From an uncultured Gammaproteobacteria bacterium (lineage in GTDB: Bacteria; Pseudomonadota; Gammaproteobacteria; JAURND01), in assembly GCA_963714975.1 (NCBI GenBank), contig CAVQQD010000002.1:768001-832000 (forward strand): 64,000 nucleotides of DNA. Direction: 5' to 3'. The position numbers and the translations under genes were made by a program. Positions within the stretch are counted from its first letter, which is position 1, and each line of letters begins with the position of its first letter. The notes beneath the pieces were generated by a model. It was given only the letters and a program-made list of their open reading frames with translations. It searched no databases and was not told the DNA's origin. This document shows, in pieces, positions 40,979 through 58,035 of the stretch.

Positions 40979-41003
40979 TTGCCAACTTTGGCAATAGGGT
41001 GAG

Positions 41004-42590
41004 TTACACTAAGGTTTCTGCTTTCTTTTGATTATACAAGTGCTGCAAGTATTGATATTGAGAAGGCAGTTTTTCTGCTAATTCACCTGACTTGATTTGG
41101 ATTTCTTGTATAAGTTGTTCGCCTCTTTGCATAATATCATGGCGAAAATTAAGAATAGGCATAGCAGTATGGGGTAATTGACCGACGCCACATAAAATAC
41201 ATTGGTAATTAGTGTTTGTCCAAAAGGTTTCAAATTGAGCTGCGAAAGAGCTATACAGCTCATTATCGGGTTGTGTGCTTTGTCGAATAGGGAGCCCAGC
41301 TTTTTGACGATTCAATGTTTGCTGTAAATATTCAGGCATTTTTGTTTCGTACTTATTAGCCTTCCAAAATGGTGTGTCTTCACGTTGCGCAGTTTTAAAG
41401 TGCATGATAATAAAATTTTTCACATCTTCAACCATATAGGATATTTTTTGATTAAATTTATCCCGATAGACTGGATCAATATTTTTATTGGGGAAATTTT
41501 TAATTAATTGATAGAGTGCTGCGTAAATAAAGTAAATTCCAGTAGATTCCAGAGGTTCCAAAAAGCTACTAGATAGCCCAATGCCCACGCAATTGTTTAC
41601 CCAGGCATGGCGGCGTCTACGCGATTGAAATTTAATGAAACGAATTTTTGCTTGCTCGCCGCGTTTGCCAAAAAATGCTCTCACTTCTTTTTCTGCTTCA
41701 TCGTCGCTAATAAATTGGCTGGAATAGACATAGCCATTTCCTGTACGATAAAATAACGGAATTTCCCATACCCATCCCGCCTTAAGAGCGGTTGCTGAAG
41801 TAAAAGGGCGAATACCTTTAATTTCAGCAGATTCTTCAAAATTAATCGAAATTGCACGATCGGTTAATAAGCTTTCTTCAAATGAAACTATGGGCTCATG
41901 TAGAGTTTTTTCAATTAAAAACCCATTAAACCCTGAGCAATCAATAAATAGGTCTGCAGCATATTTTTTTCCAGATTCACTTACCACGCATTTAATATTC
42001 CCTTGTTCATCTAATTCAACATGCGTCAAATTATCAGACACATAATTAATTCCATGCTTAATCGACCATTTTTGTAAAAAATTAGCTAGTAATAGTGCGT
42101 CAAAATGGTATGCATAATGCTGTACTGGCGTGCCATTTAAAAATTTAGGAGATTTATTGAGTTCCCACGCTTTAGCAGTCGAAAAGCAGGCATGGTCCAT
42201 GGGAATATTAAAATTCTCTTCTAGTCGTTTTTTAATCCATATATGAGTTAATGGCACTTCGTCAATCGTTGGAACTTCACCGAAATTATGATGATAGCTA
42301 TCACCTCCAGTTTCAGGAGGGATTTTCCAATTAATAAATTTTACTCCCAGTTTGTAAGTGGCTTGACAACTTGGCATCCATTCTTCTTCCGAAAGTCCCA
42401 AGTGATCAAAAAATTCTGTTTTTATTGTAGGGATGGTAGCTTCTCCTACACCAATTCTAGGAACAGAGGGAGACTCGATAACAGTTATATTAACTTTAAA
42501 GCCTAAAGATTTTCCGATGTAAGCAGCAGACATCCAGCCGGAGCTTCCACCACCAACAATAATAATATTCTGAATTTTTTCTTGTTCCAT
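41004..42590 (-). CDS. Flavin-dependent tryptophan halogenase (PrnA/RebH-like)
   Basis: IVGGGSSGW, IGVGEATIP, catalytic K in ATYKLGVKF, WVWEIP, FLEPLESTG; PrnA-like segments HHNFGEVP..DEVPLTH.W and FETFWTNTNY. Confidence 0.93.
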   Translation of the reverse strand: MEQEKIQNIIIVGGGSSGWMSAAYIGKSLGFKVNITVIESPSVPRIGVGEATIPTIKTEFFDHLGLSEEEWMPSCQATYKLGVKFINWKIPPETGGDSYHHNFGEVPTIDEVPLTHIWIKKRLEENFNIPMDHACFSTAKAWELNKSPKFLNGTPVQHYAYHFDALLLANFLQKWSIKHGINYVSDNLTHVELDEQGNIKCVVSESGKKYAADLFIDCSGFNGFLIEKTLHEPIVSFEESLLTDRAISINFEESAEIKGIRPFTSATALKAGWVWEIPLFYRTGNGYVYSSQFISDDEAEKEVRAFFGKRGEQAKIRFIKFQSRRRRHAWVNNCVGIGLSSSFLEPLESTGIYFIYAALYQLIKNFPNKNIDPVYRDKFNQKISYMVEDVKNFIIMHFKTAQREDTPFWKANKYETKMPEYLQQTLNRQKAGLPIRQSTQPDNELYSSFAAQFETFWTNTNYQCILCGVGQLPHTAMPILNFRHDIMQRGEQLIQEIQIKSGELAEKLPSQYQYLQHLYNQKKAETLV

Positions 42591-42627
42591 AAGGGGTACT
42601 CCTATTTTGATTCGAAAATAATGGCAC

Positions 42628-42719
42628 GTTGTCCCTGCACGGAAGCAGGGATCCAGTCTTCAGGATGCAAAAGCTTCACGTCCTTGTTGCCTGGATCCTG
42701 GCATCCGTGCCAGGACGAC
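42628..42719. repeat. Family-2 MITE-like element overlapping the 3' end of the PLP enzyme gene
   Basis: Homologous to 57923-58016, including the internal spacer. Confidence 0.8.
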
Positions 42720-43785
42720 AGCGGTGCGTTAAGACATTAATTACTCTGTTGTTTTCATTTTTGTTTCCTAAGGTAATTCTAGCCGTGTTATGAAGCTCCT
42801 CAGGGCGCCACAGTACTTTAATGTTAGCATCATTAAAGCGATCAATTATTGTATGAGCATCAGTGAATTCGATGCAGATAAAATTAGTTTCACTAGAATA
42901 AATTTTTTTAATTAATGGAGAATTTTTAATTGCGTCTATAACCCGTATTCGTTCTTGTCGTATTTGTTCAATTCCATGATGTAGAAGTTCTGGATGATTC
43001 AGTTGTTGTTGTAACATATTCTCAATTGGACCCGGCATGTTATATGGAGGCTGGACCCGTTTCAGCGTGTCTATAATTTTTTCATTAGCAATTAATGCGC
43101 CAACCCGAAGGCTTGCCATTCCTAATGCCTTAGAACAAGTTCTAAGTATAATCAAATTAGGGTATTCTAATATTTTATTTAAATAGGAAGGCTTTTTTGA
43201 AAATTCGACATAAGCCTCATCAATAATAATTAGATTTGAAAATTTATCTAAAATGTTGATTATATTTTCGGGATTAATTCGCGATCCTAATGGATTATTG
43301 GGGTCACACAGTAACAAAAGTTTTGCCTTGTGGTTAATTATTTTTGTAATGGGTAATTGTGCTCCGTCAAGTTCAAGGTCGAACAGAACGGGGTGAATTC
43401 TATATAATTGAGCCCAATGGATAAAGGCACTAAAAGTAGGTGGAGTTAGGATTACTTCGTCCAGATTGGGTTCAGCAAATGCCTTAAATACTAGGTCTAA
43501 TGCATCGACAGCACCAGTAGAAAATAAAATATTACGAAAATTAAGTGGATTATCCTTAATAGGGAGGCTTTGAGTTTTTTGATCAAGTTTCCAAATAAAA
43601 TCTAGGTAATGTTGTTTAATACTTCTTTGATGAAGATCAGGGTAATGTTTAAAGGTCCCACCGAATGCATTAGTATTATTATTTAATAGCAACTGTGCGT
43701 TGTCAAAAACTTGATTTTCAGCTAGCGGTCCGGGGAAAGATAATTTTTTAACATTTTTTCTAGAAAGTTCATGAGCATTACTCAT
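42676..43785 (-). CDS. HisC/CobD-fold PLP-dependent aminotransferase or decarboxylase
   Basis: CDPNNPLG, IDEAYVEF, RTCSKALGMASLRVG. Confidence 0.85.
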   Translation of the reverse strand: MSNAHELSRKNVKKLSFPGPLAENQVFDNAQLLLNNNTNAFGGTFKHYPDLHQRSIKQHYLDFIWKLDQKTQSLPIKDNPLNFRNILFSTGAVDALDLVFKAFAEPNLDEVILTPPTFSAFIHWAQLYRIHPVLFDLELDGAQLPITKIINHKAKLLLLCDPNNPLGSRINPENIINILDKFSNLIIIDEAYVEFSKKPSYLNKILEYPNLIILRTCSKALGMASLRVGALIANEKIIDTLKRVQPPYNMPGPIENMLQQQLNHPELLHHGIEQIRQERIRVIDAIKNSPLIKKIYSSETNFICIEFTDAHTIIDRFNDANIKVLWRPEELHNTARITLGNKNENNRVINVLTHRCRPGTDARIQATRT

Positions 43786-44728
43786 ATTTTTTCTCCTTAT
43801 CCATTAATGAGTAAACTCTTGAGGAAAAAGCGTCTACCATTTTCCAAGATTCTTCCAATACTTCATTGATACGTTTTGCTGTGTGTAAATTTTCTATTAA
43901 CAATGGTTGTTCGTCATTTAAATTTGTTTTTATTAGGTTGAATGTTGTCGGAAATTTTATGTTAGTAATTTCATAAGATTCGCAAATATTAATAAATAAG
44001 TTAGTAACAGGTTTTGTGATTAAATGATTAATGGCTATTTTTTCCATTTGATCTAAAATGAGTGTTTGATAAATGAACCATTCTGCTAGAGATTCTAAGG
44101 TCAAGTCAAAAGATTTTTCTTCTATTGTCTGTCTTGAGAGGAAAGGTTCTTGACATTTGTTAAACCAAATTTGTATAGCATTAGAAAATATTTCTCGTTT
44201 TTTTAAATTATTTAACAGTCCAGATTTAATTTTTTTAAAGAGAAGATTAGAATAAAATTGATTTATATATTTTTGGTTTTTTTTAAGTGTTTGTGTCAAA
44301 ATTAATTTTTGCTTTGAGTTTGTTTTTGCTGTTGTATAAGTATCTTGATAAAACTCATTGCCTAATTGGATGCATACACTATGCAAACCTTTTGGGCCAG
44401 CAATGAAGGAGTGAGATTGTCCAGCTGGAATTAATACTGTATCACCTTCTTTTATTTTAGTATAAGAGTTTTCTCCAATAAATTTACCACTTCCAGAAAT
44501 AAACAATAATAGATGTGGAAATAAATTTTCATGGAGCGGCATAGTATGATCGGGTTTTAAATATCCTATGTTAATGGATAATGCAGAAATAGATGGTAAA
44601 ATTTTATGTAAGGATTCGTGCCATGTCAAATCCCTAAACTGTCCTATATGGTGGATTTTTCCTTGAAGTTCTATCCATTCTACAGGTGCTATATCCATTA
44701 ACTTTAAATGAATAATTTTTTTGGTCAT
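43778..44728 (-). CDS. Cupin plus degenerate HDO-like domain (paralog B)
   Basis: Cupin PLH.....H / GDTVLIPAGQSH; C-terminal half aligns to paralog A (WF.YQ...LD..EK.A..HLI) but lacks the diiron ligands. Confidence 0.75.
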   Translation of the reverse strand: MTKKIIHLKLMDIAPVEWIELQGKIHHIGQFRDLTWHESLHKILPSISALSINIGYLKPDHTMPLHENLFPHLLLFISGSGKFIGENSYTKIKEGDTVLIPAGQSHSFIAGPKGLHSVCIQLGNEFYQDTYTTAKTNSKQKLILTQTLKKNQKYINQFYSNLLFKKIKSGLLNNLKKREIFSNAIQIWFNKCQEPFLSRQTIEEKSFDLTLESLAEWFIYQTLILDQMEKIAINHLITKPVTNLFINICESYEITNIKFPTTFNLIKTNLNDEQPLLIENLHTAKRINEVLEESWKMVDAFSSRVYSLMDKEKKYE

Positions 44729-44752
44729 GTGGAACCTCCAAAGATTACTCCA

Positions 44753-45777
44753 TTAATCTTTTTGATCAGATAAAACCGCAATACGATTCAGCATGATATT
44801 TAGCATCTCCCAGCCTTTATCGATAACCTGGTGCAATCGTCGATAAGTAAGCGCATCTTGACCCTTAAGTAATTTTTTCCCCATTTGTGCATGTTCATCA
44901 TCTCCTTCCCCGTGAATATCGAAATAATTTGAATGAACATTTTTTCCTACTTTTTCCTTAGCCCAGTTTCCATAATAAGATCCTCCTGTTTCAAGGATTA
45001 AGTGGATTAGAGCAGTTTTTTCTATATTATCTAATACAAACATTTGATAGCAAAACCAACTAGAGCTTGCATGTAAAATAGGATCTTTAATAACATGCTT
45101 GTTTTCACGATTTGCAAGTAATTCATTATGCCCAAATTCTTCTTGAAGATGTTTTAGAAATAGTGGTATGTATGTTTTGTCTTCACAAGTTGCTTCTCTA
45201 CTAAACATAATGAGCTGAAAATAATCAGAAAATACCTGGACGCAATCTAAGAATCGTTGTTTTTTAAGAGAACTTAAGTGCGTTTTGTTTTTCAGAAGAC
45301 TGAAAAATTCATTGTTCAAGGTTTTTTTTAAGCGTAATTGATTGTGCAATAATAATCCATCAAAGGTAAGCGCATATGATTTATAATTATCGACAGGTGT
45401 TTTGTTTTTTTTAAATGTTTTGAGATTAAGTTGTATTTGTATGCCTTGTAGCCCTTCCACACTAATTTTATTGAAGCCATAAGGGCATTGCTGTGGGATC
45501 AGTAGTATGTCACCAGCACAGATTTTCGGATCTTAGTGCCTATAAGATTAGCTGATCCCTGATATATATAAATCAGGGTACCTAGCGGTTCAGTTCTAAT
45601 TGCTAATTCATTATTTTTTTGGCCAAAAATCCAAGAAACATTAAATTGCTTGTTATTAGGTAATAATTTTTTAAGGATAGCATGATGATGCAGAGTTTTT
45701 ATATTTCTTATACTTGGAATTTGTTCTTGATGAATAATTTTTGATTTTTCAAGCGTTACACTAGTCATTTTTTCCAT
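44753..45777 (-). CDS. Degenerate cupin plus heme-oxygenase-like diiron oxidase (paralog A); one frameshift near 45523-45526
   Basis: Adding one A joins ORFs 45499-45789 and 44753-45460 (GTKIRKICAGDILLIPQQCPYGFNKISVEGLQG). HDO-type ligands: EEFGH, HLILE, HGEGDDEH (HxxxDxxH). Confidence 0.75.
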
Positions 45778-45829
45778 AAACAACTCCATGTGTAGTCGTA
45801 ACTACTTACGCCATAGCCAGCTCAGTTCC

Positions 45830-45870
45830 GTCGTCCCGCTCCCGCGATCAAGTCGCGGGAGCGGGACGAC
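45830..45870. repeat. Family-2 palindrome with an 18-bp perfect stem
   Basis: GTCGTCCCGCTCCCGCGA-TCAAG-TCGCGGGAGCGGGACGAC. Confidence 0.85.
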
Positions 45871-45877
45871 AATAATG

Positions 45878-47164
45878 CTAGTAATAAATATATTTTTTTT
45901 CTTTTTTATATAATAAATTATACAATGGTGAGGTGATCATTGTCGTAATAATTGCCATAGTAACTAATATTGTAAATAAAGCGTGAGTTATAATGTGTTG
46001 TTGGAGCCCTATGTTGAGCACTATTAGCTCCATAAGGCCTCTTGTGTTCATGAGAATTCCTATTCCTATAGAGTCACGCCAGTTTATACCGGTAATTTTA
46101 GCTGCAAACATTGTGCTTAACCCTTTTCCTAGTATAGCAGTTAATAAGACGACTGCTAAAAGGCCTAACAAATCTATTGAATTTATTAAATTGATTTGTG
46201 TGTTTAGGCCTGAAAATACGAAAAATATGGGCAGTAATAATGAATTAGTGACATGTTCGAGTTTTTGTTTTATCTTAATACTCAAATCTCTAGCTCTAGG
46301 GATAATAATCCCAGCTATAAAAGCACCAAATACCGAATATGTTCCAGCATGATCAGTAAACCAAGAGCAAATCATTAACCCTGCTAAAATTGTTCCTAAT
46401 GTTGCATTAGAGTTTAATTTAATTTTATCGAACACGGAAAAAAATTTTCCTAGAGGTTTTTTTATTAATAACATAACCACTATAAACGACGTTGTTCCGA
46501 GTATAGCTAATAATGCAATGTTTATATTGCTTTTTAGACCACTTAATAAAATGGCGAAAATAATCCATGCTAACAAGTCACCTAATGTACCAGCAGACAA
46601 GGCAATTAATCCCAGTTCGGTATGTACCGCATTTTTTTCCTCTAAAATGCGTGCTAGTATAGGCAGAGCAGTAATTGAAAGTGCAGTACCAAGAAAGATA
46701 CTTTTAGATATATCAGAAATTGATTCATTGAATAAATTAAGCTGACTAGGTAAATATAGAAATAATACTACGCCCAATAAAAATGGGATACATGTTCCTA
46801 TGCTGGCAATAAAAGCTGCTGATTTGTATTGATTTTTTAAAATTTTAATATCAAGTTCTAAACCGACCTGAAACATATATAATACAATTCCTATCTGACT
46901 TATGGAAAATAATATTGACATTGATGGATTGGGGATCGTCTTATGGTTTGCCAGCAAGTATTCTGTAGTTGGGAAAATCCAGCTATGTAAATCAGGGAAG
47001 AGTAATCCGAAGAATGAGGGTCCTAATAAAATTCCGGCGACCATTTCACATATTACATTAGTTTGTGAAAAAAATTTATTACCAATATAACTGATAGCCC
47101 TGCAAAAAAATAAAATTATAGCAAGTTGGATAAAAAGTCTTAGTATTAAATCAGAATAAGACAT
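45878..47164 (-). CDS. Cation:proton antiporter (CPA2, single domain)
   Basis: EMVAGILLGPS, SITALPILARIL, FGAFIAG, LMNTRGLMELIVLNIG. Confidence 0.9.
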   Translation of the reverse strand: MSYSDLILRLFIQLAIILFFCRAISYIGNKFFSQTNVICEMVAGILLGPSFFGLLFPDLHSWIFPTTEYLLANHKTIPNPSMSILFSISQIGIVLYMFQVGLELDIKILKNQYKSAAFIASIGTCIPFLLGVVLFLYLPSQLNLFNESISDISKSIFLGTALSITALPILARILEEKNAVHTELGLIALSAGTLGDLLAWIIFAILLSGLKSNINIALLAILGTTSFIVVMLLIKKPLGKFFSVFDKIKLNSNATLGTILAGLMICSWFTDHAGTYSVFGAFIAGIIIPRARDLSIKIKQKLEHVTNSLLLPIFFVFSGLNTQINLINSIDLLGLLAVVLLTAILGKGLSTMFAAKITGINWRDSIGIGILMNTRGLMELIVLNIGLQQHIITHALFTILVTMAIITTMITSPLYNLLYKKEKKYIYY

Positions 47165-47212
47165 TGGAAGTTACCTTTAGGCCACTGTTCAAGCCATAAC
47201 CAGCTTCACCAT

Positions 47213-47260
47213 GTCGTCCCCCGCGGACAATCCCGCGATCAAGTCGTGAGAGCAGACGAC
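47213..47260. repeat. Degenerate family-2 repeat
   Basis: GTCGTCCC...CCCGCGATCAAGTCG...GACGAC; preceded by GCCATA.CCAGCT as at 45810. Confidence 0.7.
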
Positions 47261-47276
47261 GGTGTGAGTAGTTACT

Positions 47277-48707
47277 CTATATTTCAAATTTTTGGGCTTC
47301 TCTTTCATATAAGCCTTCAAAGCGAACTACATCATCATCATTTATGTAACTCCCCATTTGTATCTCTAAAATTTCAAGAACTTCTTCTGAAGTATTTTCA
47401 ATACTATGCAGCATTTTTGGTGGAATATAAGTTGATTGGTTTTCATTTAAAAATAAAATTTCATCGCCACGGGTAATTTTAGCTTGCCCAGAAATGACAA
47501 CCCAATGTTCTCCTCGGAAGCGATGCATCTGCAAAGCAATGCAACCTCTGGGCAAAATACAGACATTTCGGATTTGATAATTAGTGTTAGATTCAATTAT
47601 TTTATAATGACCCCAAATGCGAAATACTTGCTGCGACATAGTTGCCTCAGGGCGATTTTTTTTCTCTAGTATTTTTACCATATTAGCAATTTCTTGGCTT
47701 GATTCTTTATCTGCAACTAAAATTACATCAGGAGTATCTACTACTACGATATCCTTAACTCCTACCGCAGCTATTAAACGCTTATCCGACCTTAAGTAAG
47801 AGTTTTTAGAATTCAATGCAACAACATTACCAATCGTAACATTTTGATCTTTATCTTTTTGAGTAATCTTATAAAGTGACTTCCAATTTCCTATATCAAT
47901 AAATTTGGTATTTAATTTTGTGGTCACAATATTTTGTGATTTTTCCATTACTGCATAGTCTATGGATATATCAGGGGCTTTTTCAAAGTCATCTCGATTG
48001 ACAAGTAATTTTTTGTTTTGTAACGTTTGATATTTTATTGCCTCTTTACAAGCATGAAATATTTTTGGAGAATGTTTTTCAAGTTCTTCTAAAATTACCG
48101 AAGCACGAAACATGAAAATTCCAGAATTCCACGTATATTTATCTTGGGTAAGGAATTTTTTTGCTGTTTGTAAATCTGGTTTTTCAATAAAACCATTAAC
48201 ATTGAATACATCATTGTTTGAAAAAACTTCTCCAGATTCGAGGTAACCGTAGTTCATATCGGCGTGATTAGGTTTCACACCAAAAGCAACTATTTTATTT
48301 TCTGTAGCCGCTTGTTTGGTTTTTTGAATCGCTTGGACTAATTTACGTGGATTTTGAATATAATGATCGATTGGCATTACTAATAAGATAGGATCTTTGA
48401 AATACTGTTTGGCACATAAAGCTGCAAGCGTAACAGCTGCAGCACTTCCACGGGCTACAGGTTCTAGAATTAAACATGAATAATCAAAATTTAATTCACG
48501 TACTTGTAAATCAATTATATAACGTCGGTTAAAATTACAAACAATAATGGGTGCTTTGATTTCCGAAAATTCTCGCAATCGTTCCAAAGTATTTTGCAAT
48601 AAAGATTTTTCATTATATAAAGACAATAATTGCTTAGGGTGTTGTTCGCGCGACAATGGCCATAAACGTTTTCCAAAACCACCAGACAATATGACAGGAA
48701 GGATCAT
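47277..48707 (-). CDS. manC: Mannose-1-phosphate guanylyltransferase/mannose-6-phosphate isomerase
   Basis: PVILSGGFGKRLWPLSR, FIEKP, WNSGIF, SIDYAVMEK, C-terminal cupin LQMHRFRGEHW. Confidence 0.9.
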   Translation of the reverse strand: MILPVILSGGFGKRLWPLSREQHPKQLLSLYNEKSLLQNTLERLREFSEIKAPIIVCNFNRRYIIDLQVRELNFDYSCLILEPVARGSAAAVTLAALCAKQYFKDPILLVMPIDHYIQNPRKLVQAIQKTKQAATENKIVAFGVKPNHADMNYGYLESGEVFSNNDVFNVNGFIEKPDLQTAKKFLTQDKYTWNSGIFMFRASVILEELEKHSPKIFHACKEAIKYQTLQNKKLLVNRDDFEKAPDISIDYAVMEKSQNIVTTKLNTKFIDIGNWKSLYKITQKDKDQNVTIGNVVALNSKNSYLRSDKRLIAAVGVKDIVVVDTPDVILVADKESSQEIANMVKILEKKNRPEATMSQQVFRIWGHYKIIESNTNYQIRNVCILPRGCIALQMHRFRGEHWVVISGQAKITRGDEILFLNENQSTYIPPKMLHSIENTSEEVLEILEIQMGSYINDDDVVRFEGLYEREAQKFEI

Positions 48708-48742
48708 CCATTTTACTCCTATTAATTGGCTTCTATTAGGCG

Positions 48743-50560
48743 TTATTGTAACGCCTTGCTAATACCATGCTCAGTTTTATCCCAATAATTTGGTTTAAAA
48801 AATAATTGGTATAAGGCCCTATAACTTGCAATCGACATAAATAGCCAGTAAATAGGGGCAGTTAGAGCATGAAAAATTAAATAATATTTTTTCCTACGTA
48901 AGGCAGCAATTAGATTCAGAAGTATCATAATAAATAGCCCACCAATGAAATTAAAGAGTGCAATTTTTAATACTATCGGCGGAAATATTTGTTCTACGTA
49001 TTCTTTGTTAAGAAAAAAATAGCTAATAAAAAATATCCATAGTAACACATTTGCTAAATTACTTACAAAAGTACCTCCTACGAATAACTGAAATCCAATA
49101 AAGCCTTTTGTGCCTATTGCTCGCCATAACTTAAATGGATTACGCATGTGGACAAGGTAGGTCTGCATATAACCTTTGATCCATCGAGAACGCTGTTTTA
49201 TCCAATTATAGAGCTTGGTATTTGCTTCTTCATAGGTGGTTGACGGCATCACTTTTTCTTTATAGCCGAGACGATTAAGACGAATACCAATATCAGCATC
49301 TTCAGATACGTTGTAAGGGTCCCAAGCACGGATTTTTTTTAAACATTCAGTTTTAAAATGGTTGCTAGTACCCCCTAGAGGAATGGGCGCCCCAACATAT
49401 TCTAAAGCTGGAAGCATATAATCAAACCAATAAGAGTACTCGAGAGTGAACATTTTAGTTAACCAATTATCATTTGAATTGTAAAAATTTAAGCAGCATT
49501 GCACGCAGGCTAATTTTTGTTCATTCTCTCCATGGAATACGGCAAGAGCTTTTTTTAATTGCAAAGGATCTGGCTTATCTTCCGCGTCATAAATTGTCAG
49601 ATATTCGCCGCGTGCAAATTTTAAACCATAATTACAGGCCTTTGCTTTAGTCCGTGGAAGTTTATTTGGTATGTAAATGAATTCATAACATCCTGAAATG
49701 TGGAGATTTTTTAATATCTCAATTGTCTCAGTATCGTCGGACTCTAAAAGTATTTTAATATCAAGTTTGTGTTTTGGATAATCTAAATTGTTTAAATTAT
49801 TAATTAAAGCTTTTAAAATTACTTCTTTTTCTTGGTAAAGGGGGATTAAAACAGTATAAATGGGGAGGTTTTTAAGGTTAGCTTCTACTTGAGTAATGTC
49901 GATTTTGCGTGACAAAAACATCCCAATTAATGTTAACAAAAATTTGTAGATTAAAATACCAAACAAAATGAACGACAGAACTAGGTTGAATACGAGTAAA
50001 GTTCGCAGTGGATTAATACTCAAACAACTTACCAGGAAAATAAAAAAAATTGCTAGAAAAATTTTATGCCAGGTGCAAAAGGTTTTTTTGGCACTAAGAG
50101 ATTGATTACTTGTGTTTAATTCTGATATGGATTCCTCGATATAAGTTTCATCAAATACTTTTTGTAATGTCCATAAGATGTCAAATTTAGACGTGCATAC
50201 AATTTCTGCATTTCCACCCCATTCGGCATGAATAAGCTCAAAAGTTTCATCGCTAGGATTGGCTGTGGCAACTACTATTTGATGACCAGTTTGCTTAATA
50301 GGCAATACTAATTGAGAAAAATACATATTCCGTTGCTTAGACAATAGCAAATTTTGATCAATCTCAGTGTGGATTAGGTCAACAAATTTTAGTTGAAAGT
50401 GAGAGGCGATCGCTTGGTAATAGTCTAATGATCGCAGATTTTTTATTGAAAATAAAATATCTCCTAATTTTCCTCCAATTTTTTTTTGCGTTTCCAAGGC
50501 CAATTCAATTTCATCATTGCTTGCGAGTCCCTTTTTTACAAATATCTCACCAAGTTTCAT
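48743..50560 (-). CDS. GT2 processive glycosyltransferase with an N-terminal MshEN-type domain (NfrB-like architecture)
   Basis: KLGEIFVKKG......ALETQ..KLGDIL; TKAKACNYG, YDAED, SEDAD, QRSRW; TM helices. Confidence 0.85.
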   Translation of the reverse strand: MKLGEIFVKKGLASNDEIELALETQKKIGGKLGDILFSIKNLRSLDYYQAIASHFQLKFVDLIHTEIDQNLLLSKQRNMYFSQLVLPIKQTGHQIVVATANPSDETFELIHAEWGGNAEIVCTSKFDILWTLQKVFDETYIEESISELNTSNQSLSAKKTFCTWHKIFLAIFFIFLVSCLSINPLRTLLVFNLVLSFILFGILIYKFLLTLIGMFLSRKIDITQVEANLKNLPIYTVLIPLYQEKEVILKALINNLNNLDYPKHKLDIKILLESDDTETIEILKNLHISGCYEFIYIPNKLPRTKAKACNYGLKFARGEYLTIYDAEDKPDPLQLKKALAVFHGENEQKLACVQCCLNFYNSNDNWLTKMFTLEYSYWFDYMLPALEYVGAPIPLGGTSNHFKTECLKKIRAWDPYNVSEDADIGIRLNRLGYKEKVMPSTTYEEANTKLYNWIKQRSRWIKGYMQTYLVHMRNPFKLWRAIGTKGFIGFQLFVGGTFVSNLANVLLWIFFISYFFLNKEYVEQIFPPIVLKIALFNFIGGLFIMILLNLIAALRRKKYYLIFHALTAPIYWLFMSIASYRALYQLFFKPNYWDKTEHGISKALQ

Positions 50561-50569
50561 TACATTCTC

Positions 50570-51364
50570 CTAAAAAGTGAACCAGGCAGCTAAAAATGGT
50601 GCAGTTCCTACTCCTAAATTTCTAGCATAGATATCTTGTGAGATACCTGCTTGCAGGGCAAAAGGTTTTTTTACCCAATAGACTAAGCTCGGAACAAGTG
50701 TAAATTGATCGTAATTTGTGCCTTTTGGCTGGGTTGGATTAACTAGGCTTAAAGTATTATAACTTTGTAGAAATACCCAAAGCTTTTGATCAAACAGCTT
50801 TATTCCAGCTTCCAAGTTGATTTGTGCTTGATCGCCTGCGCCATAGCGTTGAATGATGCCATTCGAGGTATCGAAAAACCAATAGACGGATGATTTTTTT
50901 CCAAAACTTCCTCCAGTCCCGTACAGAATAGCCTCTCCGGTATTCACGTGAGTGTTTTGTGGTGGAATATTTGCTGAAGCAGCCTTGCCAAAGAAATCGG
51001 CAAATGTTTGTGCGGAGATCACGCTATTTTTGCCACGCCAAATTTGATAGCGTGCCAGTATTTCATTGTCATTGGATCCTGTGATACCCGGAGGAGTTGC
51101 TGGATGGGTAGAGATGCCGGAGAAATAGGCGCCCAGAGTTAAATTAGTATTTACGCCAAATTCAAAATATTGGTCTACTTCATACTTGGCAAAACGCGGA
51201 GCACTGGTTAGCGTGCCATTACTAGTGCGAAAATGGGTGCTGACATAATGTTTAATAACGGAAATACTCAAACCCTGGCCAGGATCTTGAACCCAAGCAC
51301 CTGCAGATGCATCTTGCATAAAAAAAAATAGCAGTAATATAAATGCTAAAATTTTACTAAACAT
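50570..51364 (-). CDS. Outer membrane beta-barrel protein linked to the GT2
   Basis: Signal peptide ASA-GAW; alternating aromatic strands; C-terminal AWFTF. Confidence 0.7.
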   Translation of the reverse strand: MFSKILAFILLLFFFMQDASAGAWVQDPGQGLSISVIKHYVSTHFRTSNGTLTSAPRFAKYEVDQYFEFGVNTNLTLGAYFSGISTHPATPPGITGSNDNEILARYQIWRGKNSVISAQTFADFFGKAASANIPPQNTHVNTGEAILYGTGGSFGKKSSVYWFFDTSNGIIQRYGAGDQAQINLEAGIKLFDQKLWVFLQSYNTLSLVNPTQPKGTNYDQFTLVPSLVYWVKKPFALQAGISQDIYARNLGVGTAPFLAAWFTF

Positions 51365-51477
51365 TGTTGATGCTTATCCATTTTTGACAATGCATTTGCA
51401 TTTTTCATAAAATACCTGCATTGGGTGTTTCCCTAGCTGGGTATTATAGTCTAATTCACAATGAGGCAGAAGTTTAT

Positions 51478-53016
51478 TTACAACCTTTCTGTGATTTTGC
51501 GTTCATTAATCCAATCGTTGATAGTAATTAGCAAATTTTGCTTCTTTTCTATGGCATATTCTTGGGGTAAACAAGTACTGCATTGTCCACAACTTTTGGG
51601 GTTGTTATCGCCTAATGTTTGACACAAAATAACCATTAAACAATTTCGTGATTGTTCGGCATATTGTTGCATTAATGCTAATTCAAAATGTCGTATTTGT
51701 AATTGGAGCCCATAACGATGTAAGCTAGGCTGATTTTGTTTTCCGGTCAAGTGGTATATTTGCCTTCCATGGTGACTTGCTTTTCGTATGTATTCTTGCT
51801 CGATTAATTCTGTCACTACTACGGTTAAACGTGTTGCTTGAAGTCCGGTGATCTCTTTTAAGTTGGTAATGTTGAGAGGTGTTTTAGAGTTTTCTAGAAC
51901 ATTTAAGACCAATTTAAAGTCCTCCATCTGTGGTCGTGAAGCATCAATAAAATATTTTTGTATCTTGCAATCTTGAGCATCGTAAAGGAGAATCCCATTC
52001 GCCGAATTTCCATCTCTGCCGCATCGTCCTACTTCCTGATAATAAGCAGTAATTGATCCTGGGAAATCGAAATGAATAATAAAGCGTAAATTTGCTTTGT
52101 CTATTCCCATGCCTAAGGCATTTGTTGCAGCAACCACTTTATAATGGTCGAGGATAAAATTGTCCTGAATTTGTTGCTTTTTCTGCAAACCAATACCTGA
52201 ATGATATGCAATAGTATTTATGCCTTTGGAAAATAAATAATCGGCAACTAGCTCGGTATTTTCTCGGGTAGCACAATAAATTATGCCTGATCCTTTTAGT
52301 TTTGGTAATAAACTTTGTAAGGTTAATAGCTTCATGGCAGTGCCGGTTAGTGGAATAACAGATAGATGAATATTGGGACGATTCATAGCTTCGCGATGTA
52401 CTTCGATACATTTGTCGTCTATGCTTAGTTGCTGGATAATATCGGATTCTGTTTTTTGATTGGCTGTTGCTGTGAGCCCCAAGATTTTAATATTGGAGTC
52501 TTTTTTTGCCAAGGCGCGTGCTAATTGGGTGATTTGTCGATAGCTAGGACGAAAATCGTGTCCCCAAGTAGAAATGCAATGAGCCTCGTCAACCACTAAT
52601 AAACTAATGGGTAAGCTAAGTAAAAATTCGAAACGATCTATGTGTTCCAATTGCTCTGGAGAGATAAATAGGATGCGTACTTTCCCTGTTTGTACTGCTT
52701 GTCGTGCTGCCATATTTTCAGCATAACTTTGATCGCTATTAATGCTAATTGCAGATATATCGAAACGATTTTTTAACTGCATGATTTGATCTCTCATTAG
52801 AGCCAGCAAGGGTGATATCACTAAAGTAATACCGCTAAGCATTGTAGTAGGTAGTTGATATAGTAGTGATTTACCGTGACCCGTAGGTTGAATGCAAAGC
52901 AGCCGACCATGGACCATTAGGCTAATTAGTGCGTTCAGTTGTCCAGGACGAAATTGATTAAAGTGAAAATTATCTTGTAAAGCTTGAAGAAGAGCATTTC
53001 GAATTTCATTTTGCAT
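51478..53016 (-). CDS. RecQ-family helicase (short form)
   Basis: FRPGQ, PTGHGKS, DEAHCISTWGHDFRP, QEVGRCGRDG, C-terminal Zn cysteines. Confidence 0.88.
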   Translation of the reverse strand: MQNEIRNALLQALQDNFHFNQFRPGQLNALISLMVHGRLLCIQPTGHGKSLLYQLPTTMLSGITLVISPLLALMRDQIMQLKNRFDISAISINSDQSYAENMAARQAVQTGKVRILFISPEQLEHIDRFEFLLSLPISLLVVDEAHCISTWGHDFRPSYRQITQLARALAKKDSNIKILGLTATANQKTESDIIQQLSIDDKCIEVHREAMNRPNIHLSVIPLTGTAMKLLTLQSLLPKLKGSGIIYCATRENTELVADYLFSKGINTIAYHSGIGLQKKQQIQDNFILDHYKVVAATNALGMGIDKANLRFIIHFDFPGSITAYYQEVGRCGRDGNSANGILLYDAQDCKIQKYFIDASRPQMEDFKLVLNVLENSKTPLNITNLKEITGLQATRLTVVVTELIEQEYIRKASHHGRQIYHLTGKQNQPSLHRYGLQLQIRHFELALMQQYAEQSRNCLMVILCQTLGDNNPKSCGQCSTCLPQEYAIEKKQNLLITINDWINERKITERL

Positions 53017-53115
53017 TATTATAGTCCATCGAAAAATAAAAATAATCAGTCTTCAGCGGTTCCCGCTGAACCGCCCAGATCTTACCTCAAGGCCCTGGAA
53101 AACAAAACCTGGTAT

Positions 53116-53144
53116 TTGACATATATATGATTCTCTGATAGACT
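53116..53144 (+). promoter_or_regulatory. Sigma70-like promoter of the small-protein cluster
   Basis: TTGACA-N17-TAGACT. Confidence 0.6.
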
Positions 53145-53232
53145 TCCGCAAGTATTTTTAGTTACTGCAGGTGTCCAGGATGGATCCCTGAGTAGTTGGT
53201 TATAAAATGCTCAACATTTAGGGAGAAATGGT

Positions 53233-53406
53233 ATGAGCCAAGAAAAATCGTTTGAAGTTCAAACTAATCAAGCATTTCCAAAGATATCAGATCAAATTGC
53301 TGATTATCATTCTACCGAAATTTCCTCAATTAAAAAAACGCGGAAATATCGTTCAAAACAGCGCCATATTTTACCCATCATCGATAAGCCATCTGGCGGT
53401 TCCTAG
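53233..53406 (+). CDS. 57-aa small protein (not in the ORF track)
   Basis: SD GGAG upstream; MSQEKSFEVQ...KKTRKYRSKQRH...GGS*; first ORF after the promoter. Confidence 0.45.
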   Translation: MSQEKSFEVQTNQAFPKISDQIADYHSTEISSIKKTRKYRSKQRHILPIIDKPSGGS

Positions 53407-53479
53407 AGGTTTAATTTGTAAATTTTTGCGCTTATTTTTATAGTTTCACGATTGTTTTTCGTAATTTGGAGATAAATGA

Positions 53480-53695
53480 ATGAATAAGGAGATTAATAAG
53501 AGTTATCTCAATACCTTAGGAAAGTATGAAAACCTTTACTGGGAAAGTGTTTTAGAAGATGACTTAGATGATATAATTGAACCGTATGAGGAAATCGAAC
53601 GCCACCTACGGGAGCAATATGGTTATGACAAGGAACATGCTAGGAAGGAGCTATATTCTTCTCAGCAGAACGATGGGTGGGACGATGATTATTAA
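53480..53695 (+). CDS. CsbD-like small acidic protein
   Basis: SD GGAG; W...L.DDL...I...LREQYGYDKEHA resembles CsbD/YjbJ. Confidence 0.55.
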   Translation: MNKEINKSYLNTLGKYENLYWESVLEDDLDDIIEPYEEIERHLREQYGYDKEHARKELYSSQQNDGWDDDY

Positions 53696-53715
53696 TTTTT
53701 AAGGGAGGAATTTAT

Positions 53716-53958
53716 ATGACATCAATTGAATTAGATAGAGAAGTCGAAGCTAATAATCCAGATGCGAAATTTTATGATAAAAGTGAGAGTACTTTTGAAG
53801 AATTGAAAGAAATGTTAGAAGGAGCTGGCTATCAAGTGAAAAAAAAGACGGCTGCAACTAAGCAAGCAATCGAAAATTATAGTAAAACTCATCCATGGGA
53901 AGCAATTGTGATTTCAGCATTAGCAGGAGCAACACTTTCATTATTATTAAGAAAATAG
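53716..53958 (+). CDS. ElaB/YqjD (DUF883) family protein
   Basis: Y.K.HPW.AI.I.A..G..L..LLRK tail anchor. Confidence 0.8.
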   Translation: MTSIELDREVEANNPDAKFYDKSESTFEELKEMLEGAGYQVKKKTAATKQAIENYSKTHPWEAIVISALAGATLSLLLRK

Positions 53959-53962
53959 CTAT

Positions 53963-54334
53963 ATGGATGAAAAAGAGATTAAAAACAGCTTACTACGTAA
54001 TTTTTTCAATATATTTCGAGGGTGCTCAGGGATCTATACGGAAATACTTGAGCTAATGAAGCTTGAATTGCAGTTGGCAAAGTTAAGTATTCTGTTTTTA
54101 TTGATTGTATCTTTGGCAATTTTTGTATTGTTGGGAATTTTTTGGTTTTTCTTGATGGCTTTGTTGACTGTATTTTTTTATTCAATTTCTGGTAATTGGT
54201 TCCTAGCATTAACTATTATTTTATTATTAAATCTTGTATTGATTGTTGCTTTAATAATTATTGCGATTAAGTTAGTTGGCAACCTTAAATTCTCTGCTAC
54301 ACGTCGCCAGTTATTATCACATAAGAAGGTTTAA
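53963..54334 (+). CDS. YqjE-like membrane protein
   Basis: LELMKLELQLA, two TM helices, FSATRRQL; follows the elaB-like gene. Confidence 0.75.
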   Translation: MDEKEIKNSLLRNFFNIFRGCSGIYTEILELMKLELQLAKLSILFLLIVSLAIFVLLGIFWFFLMALLTVFFYSISGNWFLALTIILLLNLVLIVALIIIAIKLVGNLKFSATRRQLLSHKKV

Positions 54335-54340
54335 AGTTCT

Positions 54341-54655
54341 ATGTTAATGATTAAACGTAAAATTAGTTTGCTTGAGTCTAAAATTGTTGCAAAAAAAATA
54401 TTGCTTGCTAATGATTTTTCTCAAACAAAAAAAATCCTTAGTTCCCCTAAATATATTGTAGGTTCGATACTGGGAGGATTGACTTTAGGCTTTATTTTAT
54501 TTGCCGTGAAAATAAAAAAAACCGGAAAAAATACCAAAAAAACCCCAAAAAATGTTAATCCTGGAGCTCTCCCAGACCTGCGTTATAAATTTGTTTTTTT
54601 ACTTTTAACTTTTTTAATTAGCATTATGCGTGTGATTCACTCGAGGGAGGGATAA
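54341..54655 (+). CDS. Small basic membrane protein (YqjK-like position)
   Basis: Third gene of a yqjD-yqjE-yqjK-like triad. Confidence 0.5.
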   Translation: MLMIKRKISLLESKIVAKKILLANDFSQTKKILSSPKYIVGSILGGLTLGFILFAVKIKKTGKNTKKTPKNVNPGALPDLRYKFVFLLLTFLISIMRVIHSREG

Positions 54656-54774
54656 TTTCTTACATTTCAAATGGTGTGGTTATTACATTTTAATTTTATT
54701 AAATGGTATTTGATTATTAAGTAAGTTAAATAACTTTGTTACACTTTATTGATTGTCAAATGGAGAACATAAAG

Positions 54775-55032
54775 ATGCCAAGTCAAGACATTAATCAAGC
54801 CTCAGAGGCGTTAAAATCTCATCTTAATGGGGGGCGAGAAAGATTATCTAAAGCTATTAGCGATGCATTAGGTGACACTATGGAAATGTTAGAAAAACAA
54901 GGTCATCAGATGAAAAAGCAAAGCTTGCATGCGCGTGATTCAGTAGATAAGTATGTAAAATTAAATCCTTTTAAATCATTGAGTATGGCATTAGTCGCTG
55001 GTGCTATTGTGGCACTAATTTTACGACGATAA
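54775..55032 (+). CDS. ElaB/YqjD (DUF883) family protein
   Basis: VDKYVKLNPFKSLSMALVAGAIVALILRR. Confidence 0.8.
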   Translation: MPSQDINQASEALKSHLNGGRERLSKAISDALGDTMEMLEKQGHQMKKQSLHARDSVDKYVKLNPFKSLSMALVAGAIVALILRR

Positions 55033-55148
55033 TCCGTTGGTATAGGTACAAGTAGCAGGATCGAATGATTACATTTATTTTACCTTTCTAGTCTTTAATT
55101 TGTTAATAAGATATTTGTTAAATTTTTTTAACCAAAGGAGAAAGCATC

Positions 55149-55313
55149 ATGACAAACAATTGGCAATCAAATAACCAACGTCAAGGTTCTGACAAAAATC
55201 AACAGCAACAATCTAAAGGAAGAGACCGTGATTCTAAGCAAAAGCAATGGAGTGACGATCCAAGTCGACAACAACACGAATCAGAACGAAGCGAGGGGGA
55301 AAGAAACAAATAA
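55149..55313 (+). CDS. 54-aa hydrophilin-like protein (not in the ORF track)
   Basis: Strong SD AAAGGAG; MTNNWQSNNQRQGSDKNQQQQSKGRDRDSKQKQWSDDPSRQQHESERSEGERNK. Confidence 0.65.
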   Translation: MTNNWQSNNQRQGSDKNQQQQSKGRDRDSKQKQWSDDPSRQQHESERSEGERNK

Positions 55314-55325
55314 GCACATTTAAGT

Positions 55326-55368
55326 AAAAATAGCACGAAGAATATTATCGCTTCTTTGTGCTATTTTT
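55326..55368 (+). terminator. Intrinsic terminator-like hairpin
   Basis: AAAAATAGCAC...GTGCTATTTTT. Confidence 0.6.
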
Positions 55369-55385
55369 ATTAGGAGATCATCTCA

Positions 55386-55604
55386 ATGGATGAACAAAAA
55401 TTAAATGCACAAAAATTAGCTGGGACAGCAGAAAATGTTGTTCAAGAAATTATCGATGTTATGGAAGAAAAAGGGTACCAAGTAAGAAAAGACCCTAATA
55501 AGATTCGTATGGCTGTAAAAACCTATGTAAAAAATAATCCTTTTAAAACTATTGGATTTTCGGCATTAATTGGGATAGTTATTGGTTTTTTATGGCGTCT
55601 TTAA
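55386..55604 (+). CDS. ElaB/YqjD (DUF883) family protein
   Basis: YVKNNPFKTIGFSALIGIVIGFLWRL. Confidence 0.8.
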   Translation: MDEQKLNAQKLAGTAENVVQEIIDVMEEKGYQVRKDPNKIRMAVKTYVKNNPFKTIGFSALIGIVIGFLWRL

Positions 55605-55610
55605 TCTTGA

Positions 55611-56213
55611 TTAAAACCAGTGGTGAGTAAATGCATAGCTTGCCGCCAAACCAGCTATGAATCCACATACATGCCCCTCCCAAGAGGTTCTTTCCTCGCT
55701 GGGAAATAAACTCAAGGCGATGCCACTAAAATAGTATAGACAGAGCAGTGCTAATAATATTGAGATGATGGAATGTTGTTGGTAAGCATTGCTAAGCAAA
55801 AATCCCCAATATCCCACAATCAGAGCGCTTGAGCCTATGTGAAGGGCAGGGCGACCAACTAGCCAAGTTAATATTCCACTTAAAATTATAATAAAAAGCG
55901 AGACCAGCAGAAAAACAATCTTGCCATTTACTAAGACTAGGGCGCCTAAAACAAAAAAAGGTAGGGCATTAAAAAAGAAGTGTTGGAAATTTCCATGTAA
56001 TAGGGGGGTTGTAAAAATCCCAATTAGACCATATATTTTTCTTGGGTATATTCCTAAGATGTTTAATCGATAGCCTAAAAGGCAATTGGCTATTTGTACA
56101 CCAAAGCCTATTATTACTAGCAAGGATAGAAAACGCCAGTTGGCTTGTACGCTACTAATGATTGTCCGCAGTGCTTCTGTTAGGCTCTCAAGCATATAGG
56201 ATAAGTGACCCAT
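55611..56213 (-). CDS. Rhomboid-family intramembrane protease
   Basis: LLHGNFQHFFFN, HIGSSA, SWEGHVCG. Confidence 0.85.
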   Translation of the reverse strand: MGHLSYMLESLTEALRTIISSVQANWRFLSLLVIIGFGVQIANCLLGYRLNILGIYPRKIYGLIGIFTTPLLHGNFQHFFFNALPFFVLGALVLVNGKIVFLLVSLFIIILSGILTWLVGRPALHIGSSALIVGYWGFLLSNAYQQHSIISILLALLCLYYFSGIALSLFPSEERTSWEGHVCGFIAGLAASYAFTHHWF

Positions 56214-56319
56214 TAATTACTGGCAATAAACTAGAAAAAAGTCTAAAATGCTAGTATACGTTAGGATGCTACTATGACCCAAGGGGTTTTTTGGGGAACC
56301 TTAAACTAAACTTAAGAAA

Positions 56320-57891: not shown

Positions 57892-57902
57892 CTGCCCTAG
57901 CG

Positions 57903-58035
57903 TGTCCTCCCTGCAGCTAGTGCGTCTTCCCTGCAGGACGCAGGGATCCAGTCACCAGGATGTGAAAGTTTCGCTTCCTGCGCCGTGGATCCCGGCATCC
58001 ATGCCGCGGGATGACGAGCTTGAGCGGGGATGACG
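57903..58035. repeat. Family-2 MITE-like element (nested)
   Basis: CCCTGCAGGACGCAGGGATCCAGTC...GGATCCCGGCATCCATGCCGCGGGATGACG; homolog of 42628-42719. Confidence 0.8.

Follow-up and report, generated by a model that had tools for sequence, protein, structure and literature searches.

Complementary metal-site loss in a conserved pair of neighbouring cupin–diiron oxidase paralogues: a candidate two-gene oxygenase module associated with tryptophan halogenases

Why would two neighbouring paralogous genes each keep a different half of a two-site enzyme? The question is raised by a short operon in a stretch of 64,000 nucleotides (nt) from an uncultured Gammaproteobacteria bacterium (contig CAVQQD010000002.1, positions 768,001 to 832,000), which was analysed whole and is called the window below. 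Two of its genes, A and B, each encode an N-terminal cupin followed by a domain resembling the heme-oxygenase-like diiron oxidases (HDOs). In A the cupin is without metal ligands and the HDO site is complete, while in B the HDO ligands are gone and a set of cupin histidines remains. This half-dead complementarity is a family-wide rule and not a local accident. Domain architecture, ligand patterns, conservation of the pair and its association with halogenases are observed features of the family; from here we infer, with moderate confidence, a conserved two-gene oxygenase module, probably heteromeric, which would act on halogenated tryptophan or its keto acid.

According to the list of open reading frames (ORFs) of the window, the operon lies on the minus strand and consists of four close-packed genes: A (in two pieces), B, a HisC-family aminotransferase and a tryptophan halogenase. 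Its parts are these:

44753-45789, minus strand: gene A as a whole, a dead cupin plus an HDO domain with its full ligand set, split by a frameshift.
45499..45789, minus strand: 5' piece of A, a 96-codon ORF with the first part of the ligand-less cupin, which aligns with the N-termini of the database proteins P0006 and P0007.
45523..45526, minus strand: run of four A (A4) at which the frame of A breaks, placed by reading the sequence and by alignment to P0006.
44753..45532, minus strand: 3' piece of A, an open frame of 259 codons that takes in the final cupin strands (PQQCPYGF) and the whole HDO domain.
44735..44739, minus strand: Shine-Dalgarno sequence GGAGG of B, 6 nt ahead of its ATG.
43778..44728, minus strand: gene B, 316 residues, with the cupin at about residues 1-125 (44354-44728) and a ligand-less HDO-like helical domain at about residues 137-316 (43778-44320).
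42676..43785, minus strand: HisC-family class I/II aminotransferase, whose start overlaps the end of B by 8 nt.
41004..42590, minus strand: flavin-dependent tryptophan halogenase, the last gene of the operon (PF04820, E 2e-150).

The likely start of A is the second ATG, at 45777, with GGAG before it; the called ORF within the 3' piece begins at GTG 45460 and has 235 residues. A spacer of 24 nt leads from the stop of A to the start of B. The halogenase is nearest to PrnA (E 1.6e-156), Thal and RebH, which are free-tryptophan halogenases.

Intact relatives of these proteins combine a three-histidine cupin (PHVHP ... CAHGF) with the HDO motifs HxxxExxH, HLVxE and HxxxDxxH. In the family alignment, R, E and Y replace the three metal histidines of the A cupin (AIRTEP, PQQCPY), and all HDO ligands of A are kept: H/E/H of HLQEEFGH, E of HLILE and H/D/H of HGEGDDEH. 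The corresponding columns (H214, E218, H221, E267, H293, D297 and H300 in P0006 numbering) are invariant in 90 family members. The preliminary description, made from the sequence of this DNA, had read A in just this way, and the alignment with intact homologues agrees with it. Unbroken homologues of A are P0006 (345 residues, 82% identity), P0007 (70%), and P0008 and P0009 (51% each).

For B the earlier picture holds in the HDO domain and needs correction in the cupin. Aligned with the C-terminal part of A (24% identity, E 7e-14), B shows a gap of 28 residues opposite IPLFLKHLQEEFGHNELL; its ExxH helix is gone, HLITK replaces HLILE (E to K) and HxxxDxxH is absent, as had been described. The cupin of B, which was thought to have kept its histidines, is not canonical. 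Its residues at the ligand positions are H66, N68, H72 and H106, so that the HxH motif reads H-E-N, with Asn for the second His in B and in P0004 alike. By the canonical cupin motif G(X)5HXH(X)3-4E(X)6G, H72 (the 'FPH' histidine) falls on the position of the Glu ligand. B has His at three of the four canonical positions, a set which differs from that of its relatives; the pattern is identical in P0004, which is the only close relative of B (49% identity) and has the same architecture. In Pfam, B matches AraC_binding (3.2e-06, above its cut-off) and Cupin_2 (2.3e-04), and the same scan shows no DNA-binding domain. B-like proteins with the same helix loss occur in databases. Since both intact A homologues and B-like relatives exist, the resemblance of A and B is not a matter of chance.

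Assignment of the C-terminal domain to the HDOs comes largely from structure. The model of P0006, which served as a stand-in for A, has a predicted local distance difference test score (pLDDT) of 91.6. Foldseek lists of whole models are dominated by the cupin domain, and the HDO matches come from a VIA wide search, in which residues 139-345 of P0006 match CtCADD best (8va9; Z 18.5, root-mean-square deviation (rmsd) 2.7, 191 aligned) and AetD second-best (8twn; Z 18.3, rmsd 2.9, 200 aligned), followed by HrmI (Z 17.6), UndA (Z 17.4) and SznF (6vzy, Z 13.1). The A-type cupin matches small metal cupins at Z of about 13. The B model (pLDDT 86.4) shows a cupin barrel and then a helical bundle. The barrel resembles TM1459-type cupins (Foldseek E 1e-07, VIA Z 13.3-14.5), and the helical domain (residues 137-315) matches AetD (8twn) at Z 11.9, rmsd 3.6 and 168 aligned, under the caution level of the tool for helical bundles; AetD is the only HDO listed for this domain.

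Searches with sequences reach much less far. The C-terminal part of A scores below the cut-off of PF14518 (E 0.023, 15 bits against 28.9), and this Pfam family is matched at E <= 0.001 by 17 of the 90 family members. A profile of 12 A-family sequences run against all PDB sequences, AetD (8twn) included in the library, found no HDO at E <= 10, its best match (E 0.06) being an unrelated protein. Single-sequence PDB searches with A and B returned nothing meaningful, the only marginal match being that of B to the cupin RemF (E 0.11). NCBIfam has no family for A or B, and P0006 and P0012 gave only sub-threshold matches to CADD there.

The complementarity of A and B becomes a rule when the family is surveyed. 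A profile of 12 members retrieved 1022 cluster representatives at E <= 0.001, and 253 at E <= 1e-30, among 1.84 billion. Ligand columns were scored for the best 150 representatives, giving 151 rows, as the A-B fusion P0016 was split in two:

Both sites live: 71/151 rows.
A type, with cupin histidines lost and HDO ligands kept: 24/151 rows.
B type, with an HHH cupin and HDO ligands lost: 21/151 rows.
Neither set complete, which includes the window's B under the strict HHH rule: 16/151 rows.
HDO-only or cut, with live HDO: 13/151 rows.
Cut: 6/151 rows.

Two scans of contig collections yielded 45 loci, and 17 of them (window not counted) carry two adjacent family genes. The upstream one, gene 1, combines a dead cupin with a live HDO in all 15 complete copies, and two copies cut by contig ends likewise keep a live HDO. 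The downstream one, gene 2, is found in several states:

Both sites live, 5 loci: L006, L024, L027, L029, L030.
Cupin live and HDO dead, 7 loci: L005, L021, L022, L033, L036, L037, L041.
Incomplete in both sites, 4 loci: L032, L034, L035, L038.
Cut by a contig end, 1 locus: L039.

Gene 2 with a dead HDO abuts or overlaps gene 1 in 11 of 11 cases, which is every HDO-dead gene 2 with enough upstream sequence; the gaps are -18 to +57 nt. In six pairs (L006, L024, L027, L029, L030 and L039) the two family genes stand apart, with a class IV aminotransferase gene in the gap of 933-990 nt. The gene-2 HDO is live in five of these and unscorable in L039, and the intervening gene is absent in the 11 HDO-dead pairs. 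Loss of the gene-2 HDO site and loss of the intervening aminotransferase go together.

Further arrangements extend the series. L007 has the same layout as the pairs with the intervening aminotransferase, with an HDO-only gene in the place of gene 1. P0016 (683 residues) is a natural fusion of an A-type half, a linker of about 20 residues and a B-type half. Four family members, P0019, P0020, P0028 and P0036 (505-525 residues), have two cupins before the HDO domain.

A quick maximum-likelihood tree of 69 rows separates the two genes. Gene 1 forms a clade of 22 rows (support 99 in the Shimodaira-Hasegawa-like approximate likelihood ratio test, SH-aLRT), which includes the A gene of the window as well as the HDO-only gene of L007; the place of the latter inside this clade means that a gene 1 can lose its dead cupin. 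The 32 gene-2 rows group separately (support 86), with B and P0004 on a long branch of 1.49. Free-standing HDO-only proteins fall into a third clade (support 100), together with the single-gene forms L015 and L008 and with a third paralogue from the genome of the window (contig C3). Sub-clades of gene 1 have their counterparts in gene 2 (L005/P0016/L022 and L027/L030 are examples), which indicates that the two genes were inherited as a pair. On this tree the HDO-dead state takes at least 4 changes, but one single origin is not rejected by the approximately unbiased (AU) test (p 0.20).

We gauged selection by identities per domain instead of by the ratio of nonsynonymous to synonymous substitution rates (dN/dS):

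A versus P0006: cupin 68.9%, HDO 86.7%.
A versus P0007: cupin 44.1%, HDO 75.9%.
A versus L005 gene 1: cupin 24.6%, HDO 54.0%.
B versus P0004: cupin 63.1%, HDO 43.2%.
L005 versus L022 gene 2: cupin 64.6%, HDO 37.0%.

Certain residues of the dead HDO domain, such as D208, W217, D226, E229, R286, W295 and R304, are invariant across thirteen B types. By these comparisons of sequences, the dead domains evolve faster than the live ones yet remain constrained. Relaxed selection on B, which the preliminary description had named as a result that would count against the pair, is not seen in either kind of comparison. Its proposal of subfunctionalisation after tandem duplication fits the tree and the ligand tables insofar as these show sister lineages, each with one degenerate domain; the duplication itself, however, is old and did not happen in this genome, because A and B are only 24% identical, the operon sits in a low-GC (guanine plus cytosine) island, and among 41 related genomes only that of the window (G000) has it. 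Neither was the degeneration reciprocal in the symmetric sense in which it had been put. It went stepwise: the gene-1 cupin is always dead, while gene 2 is fully intact in 5 of the 16 scorable pairs.

What might such a pair do? Halogenases flank it in the window and in L005, L021, L022, L027, L028 and L030, and those of L005 and L022 are 72% identical to the halogenase of the window. We propose that gene 1 would supply a metal-free cupin fused to a live diiron oxidase, and gene 2 a live mononuclear cupin fused to an HDO domain that would be live in some lineages and ligand-less (B type) in others. The PrnA-like halogenase would make 6- or 7-halo-L-tryptophan, the aminotransferase would interconvert halo-tryptophan and halo-indolepyruvate, and the diiron site of A and the cupin site of B would each catalyse a different O2-dependent step on that skeleton. 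The dead domains would be kept because they hold the proteins together, cupin on cupin and helical bundle on helical bundle, and the result would be one heteromeric enzyme with one live site of each kind. A halo-tryptophan substrate is suggested by AetD and SktA, the only HDOs with a tryptophan halogenase gene as neighbour that have been characterised: both act on brominated L-tryptophan, which they rearrange or fragment (PMC11869266, PMC13108848). The halogenase neighbour is shared with our pair and AetD is the second-best fold match of the A type. Unlike A and B, AetD and SktA are single-domain proteins with neither a cupin nor a paralogous partner, and no sequence homology between them and the A family was detected.

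Other genes near the pairs vary. A gamma-glutamyltranspeptidase gene follows gene 2 in L021 (L021:5909-7642) and L033 (L033:6739-8493) and, by similarity, also in L037, L041, L045 and L046; the gene-2 HDO is dead there. O-methyltransferase and P450 genes follow in L006 and L027, with a live gene-2 HDO. Such variety fits varied secondary-metabolite clusters, as expected.

The closest known design is SznF, given in a 2026 review as the only characterised HDO with a cupin domain (PMC13108848). It too has an HDO diiron domain and a three-histidine mononuclear cupin, which act in turn on one amino-acid substrate (PMC13108848, PMC7848743). Its order is an N-terminal dimerisation domain, a central HDO and a C-terminal cupin, with both sites live in one chain, as PMC7848743 describes it. 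In A and B, in contrast, the cupin is N-terminal, a third domain is missing and the live sites are split between two paralogous chains; the A-type fold match to SznF (6vzy, Z 13.1) is also weaker than those to CADD, AetD, HrmI and UndA. With CtCADD, UndA, HrmI and BesC (PF14518) the family shares the seven-helix heme-oxygenase-like fold with His and carboxylate ligands on the core helices, but its match to PF14518 is marginal and it adds an N-terminal cupin. Small metal cupins such as TM1459 have the beta-barrel fold of both the A and B cupins, of which that of A is without metal histidines and that of B has H-x-N for HxH and His at the canonical Glu position. Dead-paralogue activators, namely trypanosomatid AdoMetDC/prozyme and deoxyhypusine synthase, offer the reported precedent of a dead paralogue kept by its complex with a live copy (PMC5201418, PMC3663545). 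There one partner is wholly dead, whereas A and B are each half dead in opposite domains, and the complex is here only predicted.

Whether A and B act together was approached through the genes themselves and through predicted complexes. Prediction of the A:B complex, which had been proposed at the outset as a check, was run with P0006 in the place of A and gave a score of 0.39 with the window's B, the best of 3 controls scoring 0.00; the runs agree in at least 54% of contacts and partner pLDDT is at least 72. The result lends weak support: in calibration, 58 of 80 solved complexes passed the mark, as did 2 of 110 mismatched pairs, and at scores of 0.60 or under there were only 7 of those 80 complexes and both passing mismatches. 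The bicupin-HDO fusions suggest, by their architecture, that cupin-cupin pairing is used in this family, and gene-2 copies without complete metal sites, kept next to gene 1 in L032, L034, L035 and L038, point to a non-catalytic role. Gene overlap, the fusion P0016 and the weak complex prediction taken together, A and B probably work as a heteromer.

Several points weigh against this picture. The prediction tool itself cautions that a pass in this score range is more often wrong than right unless the pairing is already likely, the protein used as A is an 82% relative from another organism, and the A:B model may echo a homodimer, the two being paralogues of folds that are often homodimeric. P0016 is one lone database entry of metagenomic origin, and its lost stop codon could be an error. 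The six pairs with an aminotransferase between the genes, gene 2 being fully live in the five scorable ones, fit two independent enzymes equally well. Asn at the second His position makes metal binding by the B cupin uncertain. Since no solved HDO is found by sequence, AetD and SktA are linked to the family through fold and context. Repeated independent loss of the gene-2 HDO site is not claimed, given the AU result. Finally, A is frameshifted in the assembly and the genome has at least one true pseudogene beside another HDO paralogue.

The last point leads to the alternative that survives best, which concerns this genome and not the family: the module may be a decaying remnant here, the frameshift in A being real and the product of the operon no longer made. 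The break lies at 45523-45526, around which the two frames of A overlap, the same place that the preliminary description had singled out. Reading A4 as A5, a -1 shift, fuses both frames of A and restores one ORF for a protein of 345 residues, collinear with P0006 over its whole length, with no stop and no other indel; database proteins have 341-355 residues. The gene call of the source for A is the 235-residue piece alone (P0005). No other obvious split gene is present among the roughly 60 genes of the window gene map and the run has just four bases, so that frequent homopolymer errors are not evident. On the other hand, as A is otherwise collinear with P0006 and its HDO ligands are kept, any loss must be very recent, or else the break is an assembly error. 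Among public reads, a single soil-metagenome run contains 0.05 of the sampled words, and its 151-nt contig spans 43858-44008, outside the frameshift site; a run search of public archives listed no RNA run for this DNA. In our judgement the frameshift is somewhat more probably a real break than an error of assembly.

We also weighed programmed -1 frameshifting at this run and rejected it: the reading frame continues unbroken through this place in P0006, P0007, P0008 and P0009, and the sequence does not form a classical slippery heptamer.

Decay of the module is also in keeping with its setting. The operon has 28-35% GC versus 43.1% for the genome and belongs to a low-GC stretch from about 41 to 58 kb. 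Among the 41 related genomes cupin-HDO genes occur only in G000, and one other has just an HDO-only relative. Low GC and absence from 40 relatives indicate that the operon was probably acquired horizontally. The true pseudogene next to another HDO paralogue adds to the impression of loss. However, B, the aminotransferase and the halogenase are all intact, and the break falls in the dead cupin of A, leaving the HDO domain open over 235-259 codons. The natural HDO-only form of L007 hints that an HDO-only product might still work, although no clear ribosome-binding site for such a product of the 3' piece was seen on reading the sequence. Because of the one-base gap in the dead cupin, the module may be inactive here, reduced to an HDO-only product or mis-assembled. 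We give true decay slightly better than even chances, and the value of this genome taken alone is accordingly smaller, the operon being probably acquired and A broken or mis-assembled.

A second alternative takes A and B as independent sequential enzymes of one pathway that form no complex, the dead domains being leftovers that fold with and stabilise their own protein. The weak support from complex prediction leaves room for it. So do the loci in which an aminotransferase gene separates the two family genes, with gene 2 live at both sites in the five that can be scored, and the existence of a single-gene branch (L015, L008) and of free-standing HDO-only relatives; the HDO-only gene of L007, inside the gene-1 clade, shows moreover that a dead cupin can disappear. 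But all 11 HDO-dead copies of gene 2 abut or overlap gene 1, a natural fusion of the two exists, bicupin-HDO fusions suggest cupin-cupin pairing, and an independent enzyme would hardly account for the retention of gene 2 where neither of its metal sites is complete. We consider this alternative rather unlikely, and prefer a module whose two proteins work together.

Less probable still is that B has no catalytic part at all and serves as a scaffold, chaperone or ligand-sensing partner which activates or stabilises A, in the manner of the dead-paralogue activators. B has lost its HDO site, Asn stands at the second canonical His in B and P0004, these two lie on their long branch (1.49), and four loci keep gene 2 with neither site complete. 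The best Pfam match of B, to an AraC-type ligand-binding cupin (3.2e-06), would also agree with a sensor, but B is without a DNA-binding domain. Against this reading, three histidines (H66, H72, H106) are kept at canonical positions in B and P0004, the cupin is the better conserved domain of B (63.1 versus 43.2%), and a full HHH cupin accompanies a dead HDO in 7 of the 11 HDO-dead gene-2 copies and in 21 of the 151 database rows. That B is a pseudogene or annotation artefact under relaxed selection, as loss of the helix and of all ligand motifs from its HDO domain could suggest, is largely refuted by its intact ORF of 316 codons with a GGAGG ribosome-binding site, the 49% relative P0004 of the same architecture, the recurrence of B types in many loci with invariant dead-domain residues, and the confident B model (pLDDT 86.4).

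A bolder form of the two-gene oxygenase module can be drawn, which we regard as possible but doubtful. The pairs would be an obligate heteromeric oxygenase of an undescribed kind, with the diiron site from gene 1, the cupin site from gene 2, and the dead domains as the interface (a pseudo-bicupin and a pseudo-HDO dimer). It would define a large branch of HDOs (the 253 representatives at E <= 1e-30) devoted to halogenated indole metabolites. The gene-2 diiron site would have been lost several times, wherever the intervening aminotransferase was lost, and the frameshift in A would be a shedding of the dead cupin on the way to an HDO-only subunit as in L007.

In the literature we found no description of an N-terminal cupin-HDO fusion or of paired half-dead HDO paralogues, although the network of PMC7848743 may already include the family: that 2021 paper has one cluster of long, possibly cupin-fused sequences among predicted N-oxygenases. 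A 'haem oxygenase and tryptophan halogenase' neighbourhood is listed among unknowns in PMC13149037. HDOs are a fast-growing class with unusual amino-acid chemistry, including nitrile, skatole, alkyne and N-nitroso formation. To this class the A/B family adds a separate and sizeable group, with a domain order opposite to that of SznF and a fixed gene pair with complementary loss of metal sites. The pairs are concrete targets in the search for halogenated-tryptophan chemistry, with intact pairs at hand in L005 and L022. They are also a natural experiment in the retention of dead domains as structural partners after duplication, in which a graded series (both live, one dead, both dead, domain lost, fused) can be compared locus by locus.

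Some features around the operon deserve mention:

45833..45867, no strand assigned: perfect palindrome, rich in GC, which separates A from the Na+/H+ exchanger gene upstream.

This palindrome likely marks the 5' boundary of the operon. One of its arms is found 8 times in the genome, which gives it the look of a small repeated element. Another palindrome, an imperfect one at about 42625-42725, lies at the junction of aminotransferase and halogenase, and the unusual C-terminal tail of the aminotransferase ORF comes from it. Beyond the halogenase, on its downstream side, the genes converge. The stretch at 41000-58000 (GC 0.32-0.39) contains, besides the operon, the Na+/H+ exchanger gene, a mannose-1-phosphate guanylyltransferase-like gene and a large membrane glycosyltransferase-like gene, and as a whole it is probably an island gained by horizontal transfer.

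The third paralogue of this genome (G000) is HDO-only and lies on contig C3. It is 37% identical to the HDO domain of A and adjoins a styrene-monooxygenase-like gene for an enzyme using flavin adenine dinucleotide (FAD):

L003:1450-2205 (minus strand) and L003:2198-3245: locus of the HDO-only paralogue and the FAD enzyme on C3.

The styrene-monooxygenase-like gene is the true pseudogene mentioned above: its N-terminal 63 residues are missing and it carries a frameshift, while in a related genome (locus L002) it is intact (418 residues). The neighbourhood of an HDO-only gene and a Smoa_sbd monooxygenase is found again in 10 loci (L009-L014, L017-L020), some of them from Pseudomonas and Rickettsiella-like genomes. 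In one of them, L010, on a contig of a metagenome-assembled genome (MAG) labelled as the Wolbachia endosymbiont of Folsomia candida, the HDO-only gene is near-identical to those of Rickettsiella/Aquirickettsiella MAGs (branch lengths 0.014-0.026), and this likeness of sequence suggests that the contig is mis-binned. Elsewhere in the window, positions 53052-55614 contain only short open frames (100-127 codons) between full-size genes and may represent a gene remnant or a non-coding region.

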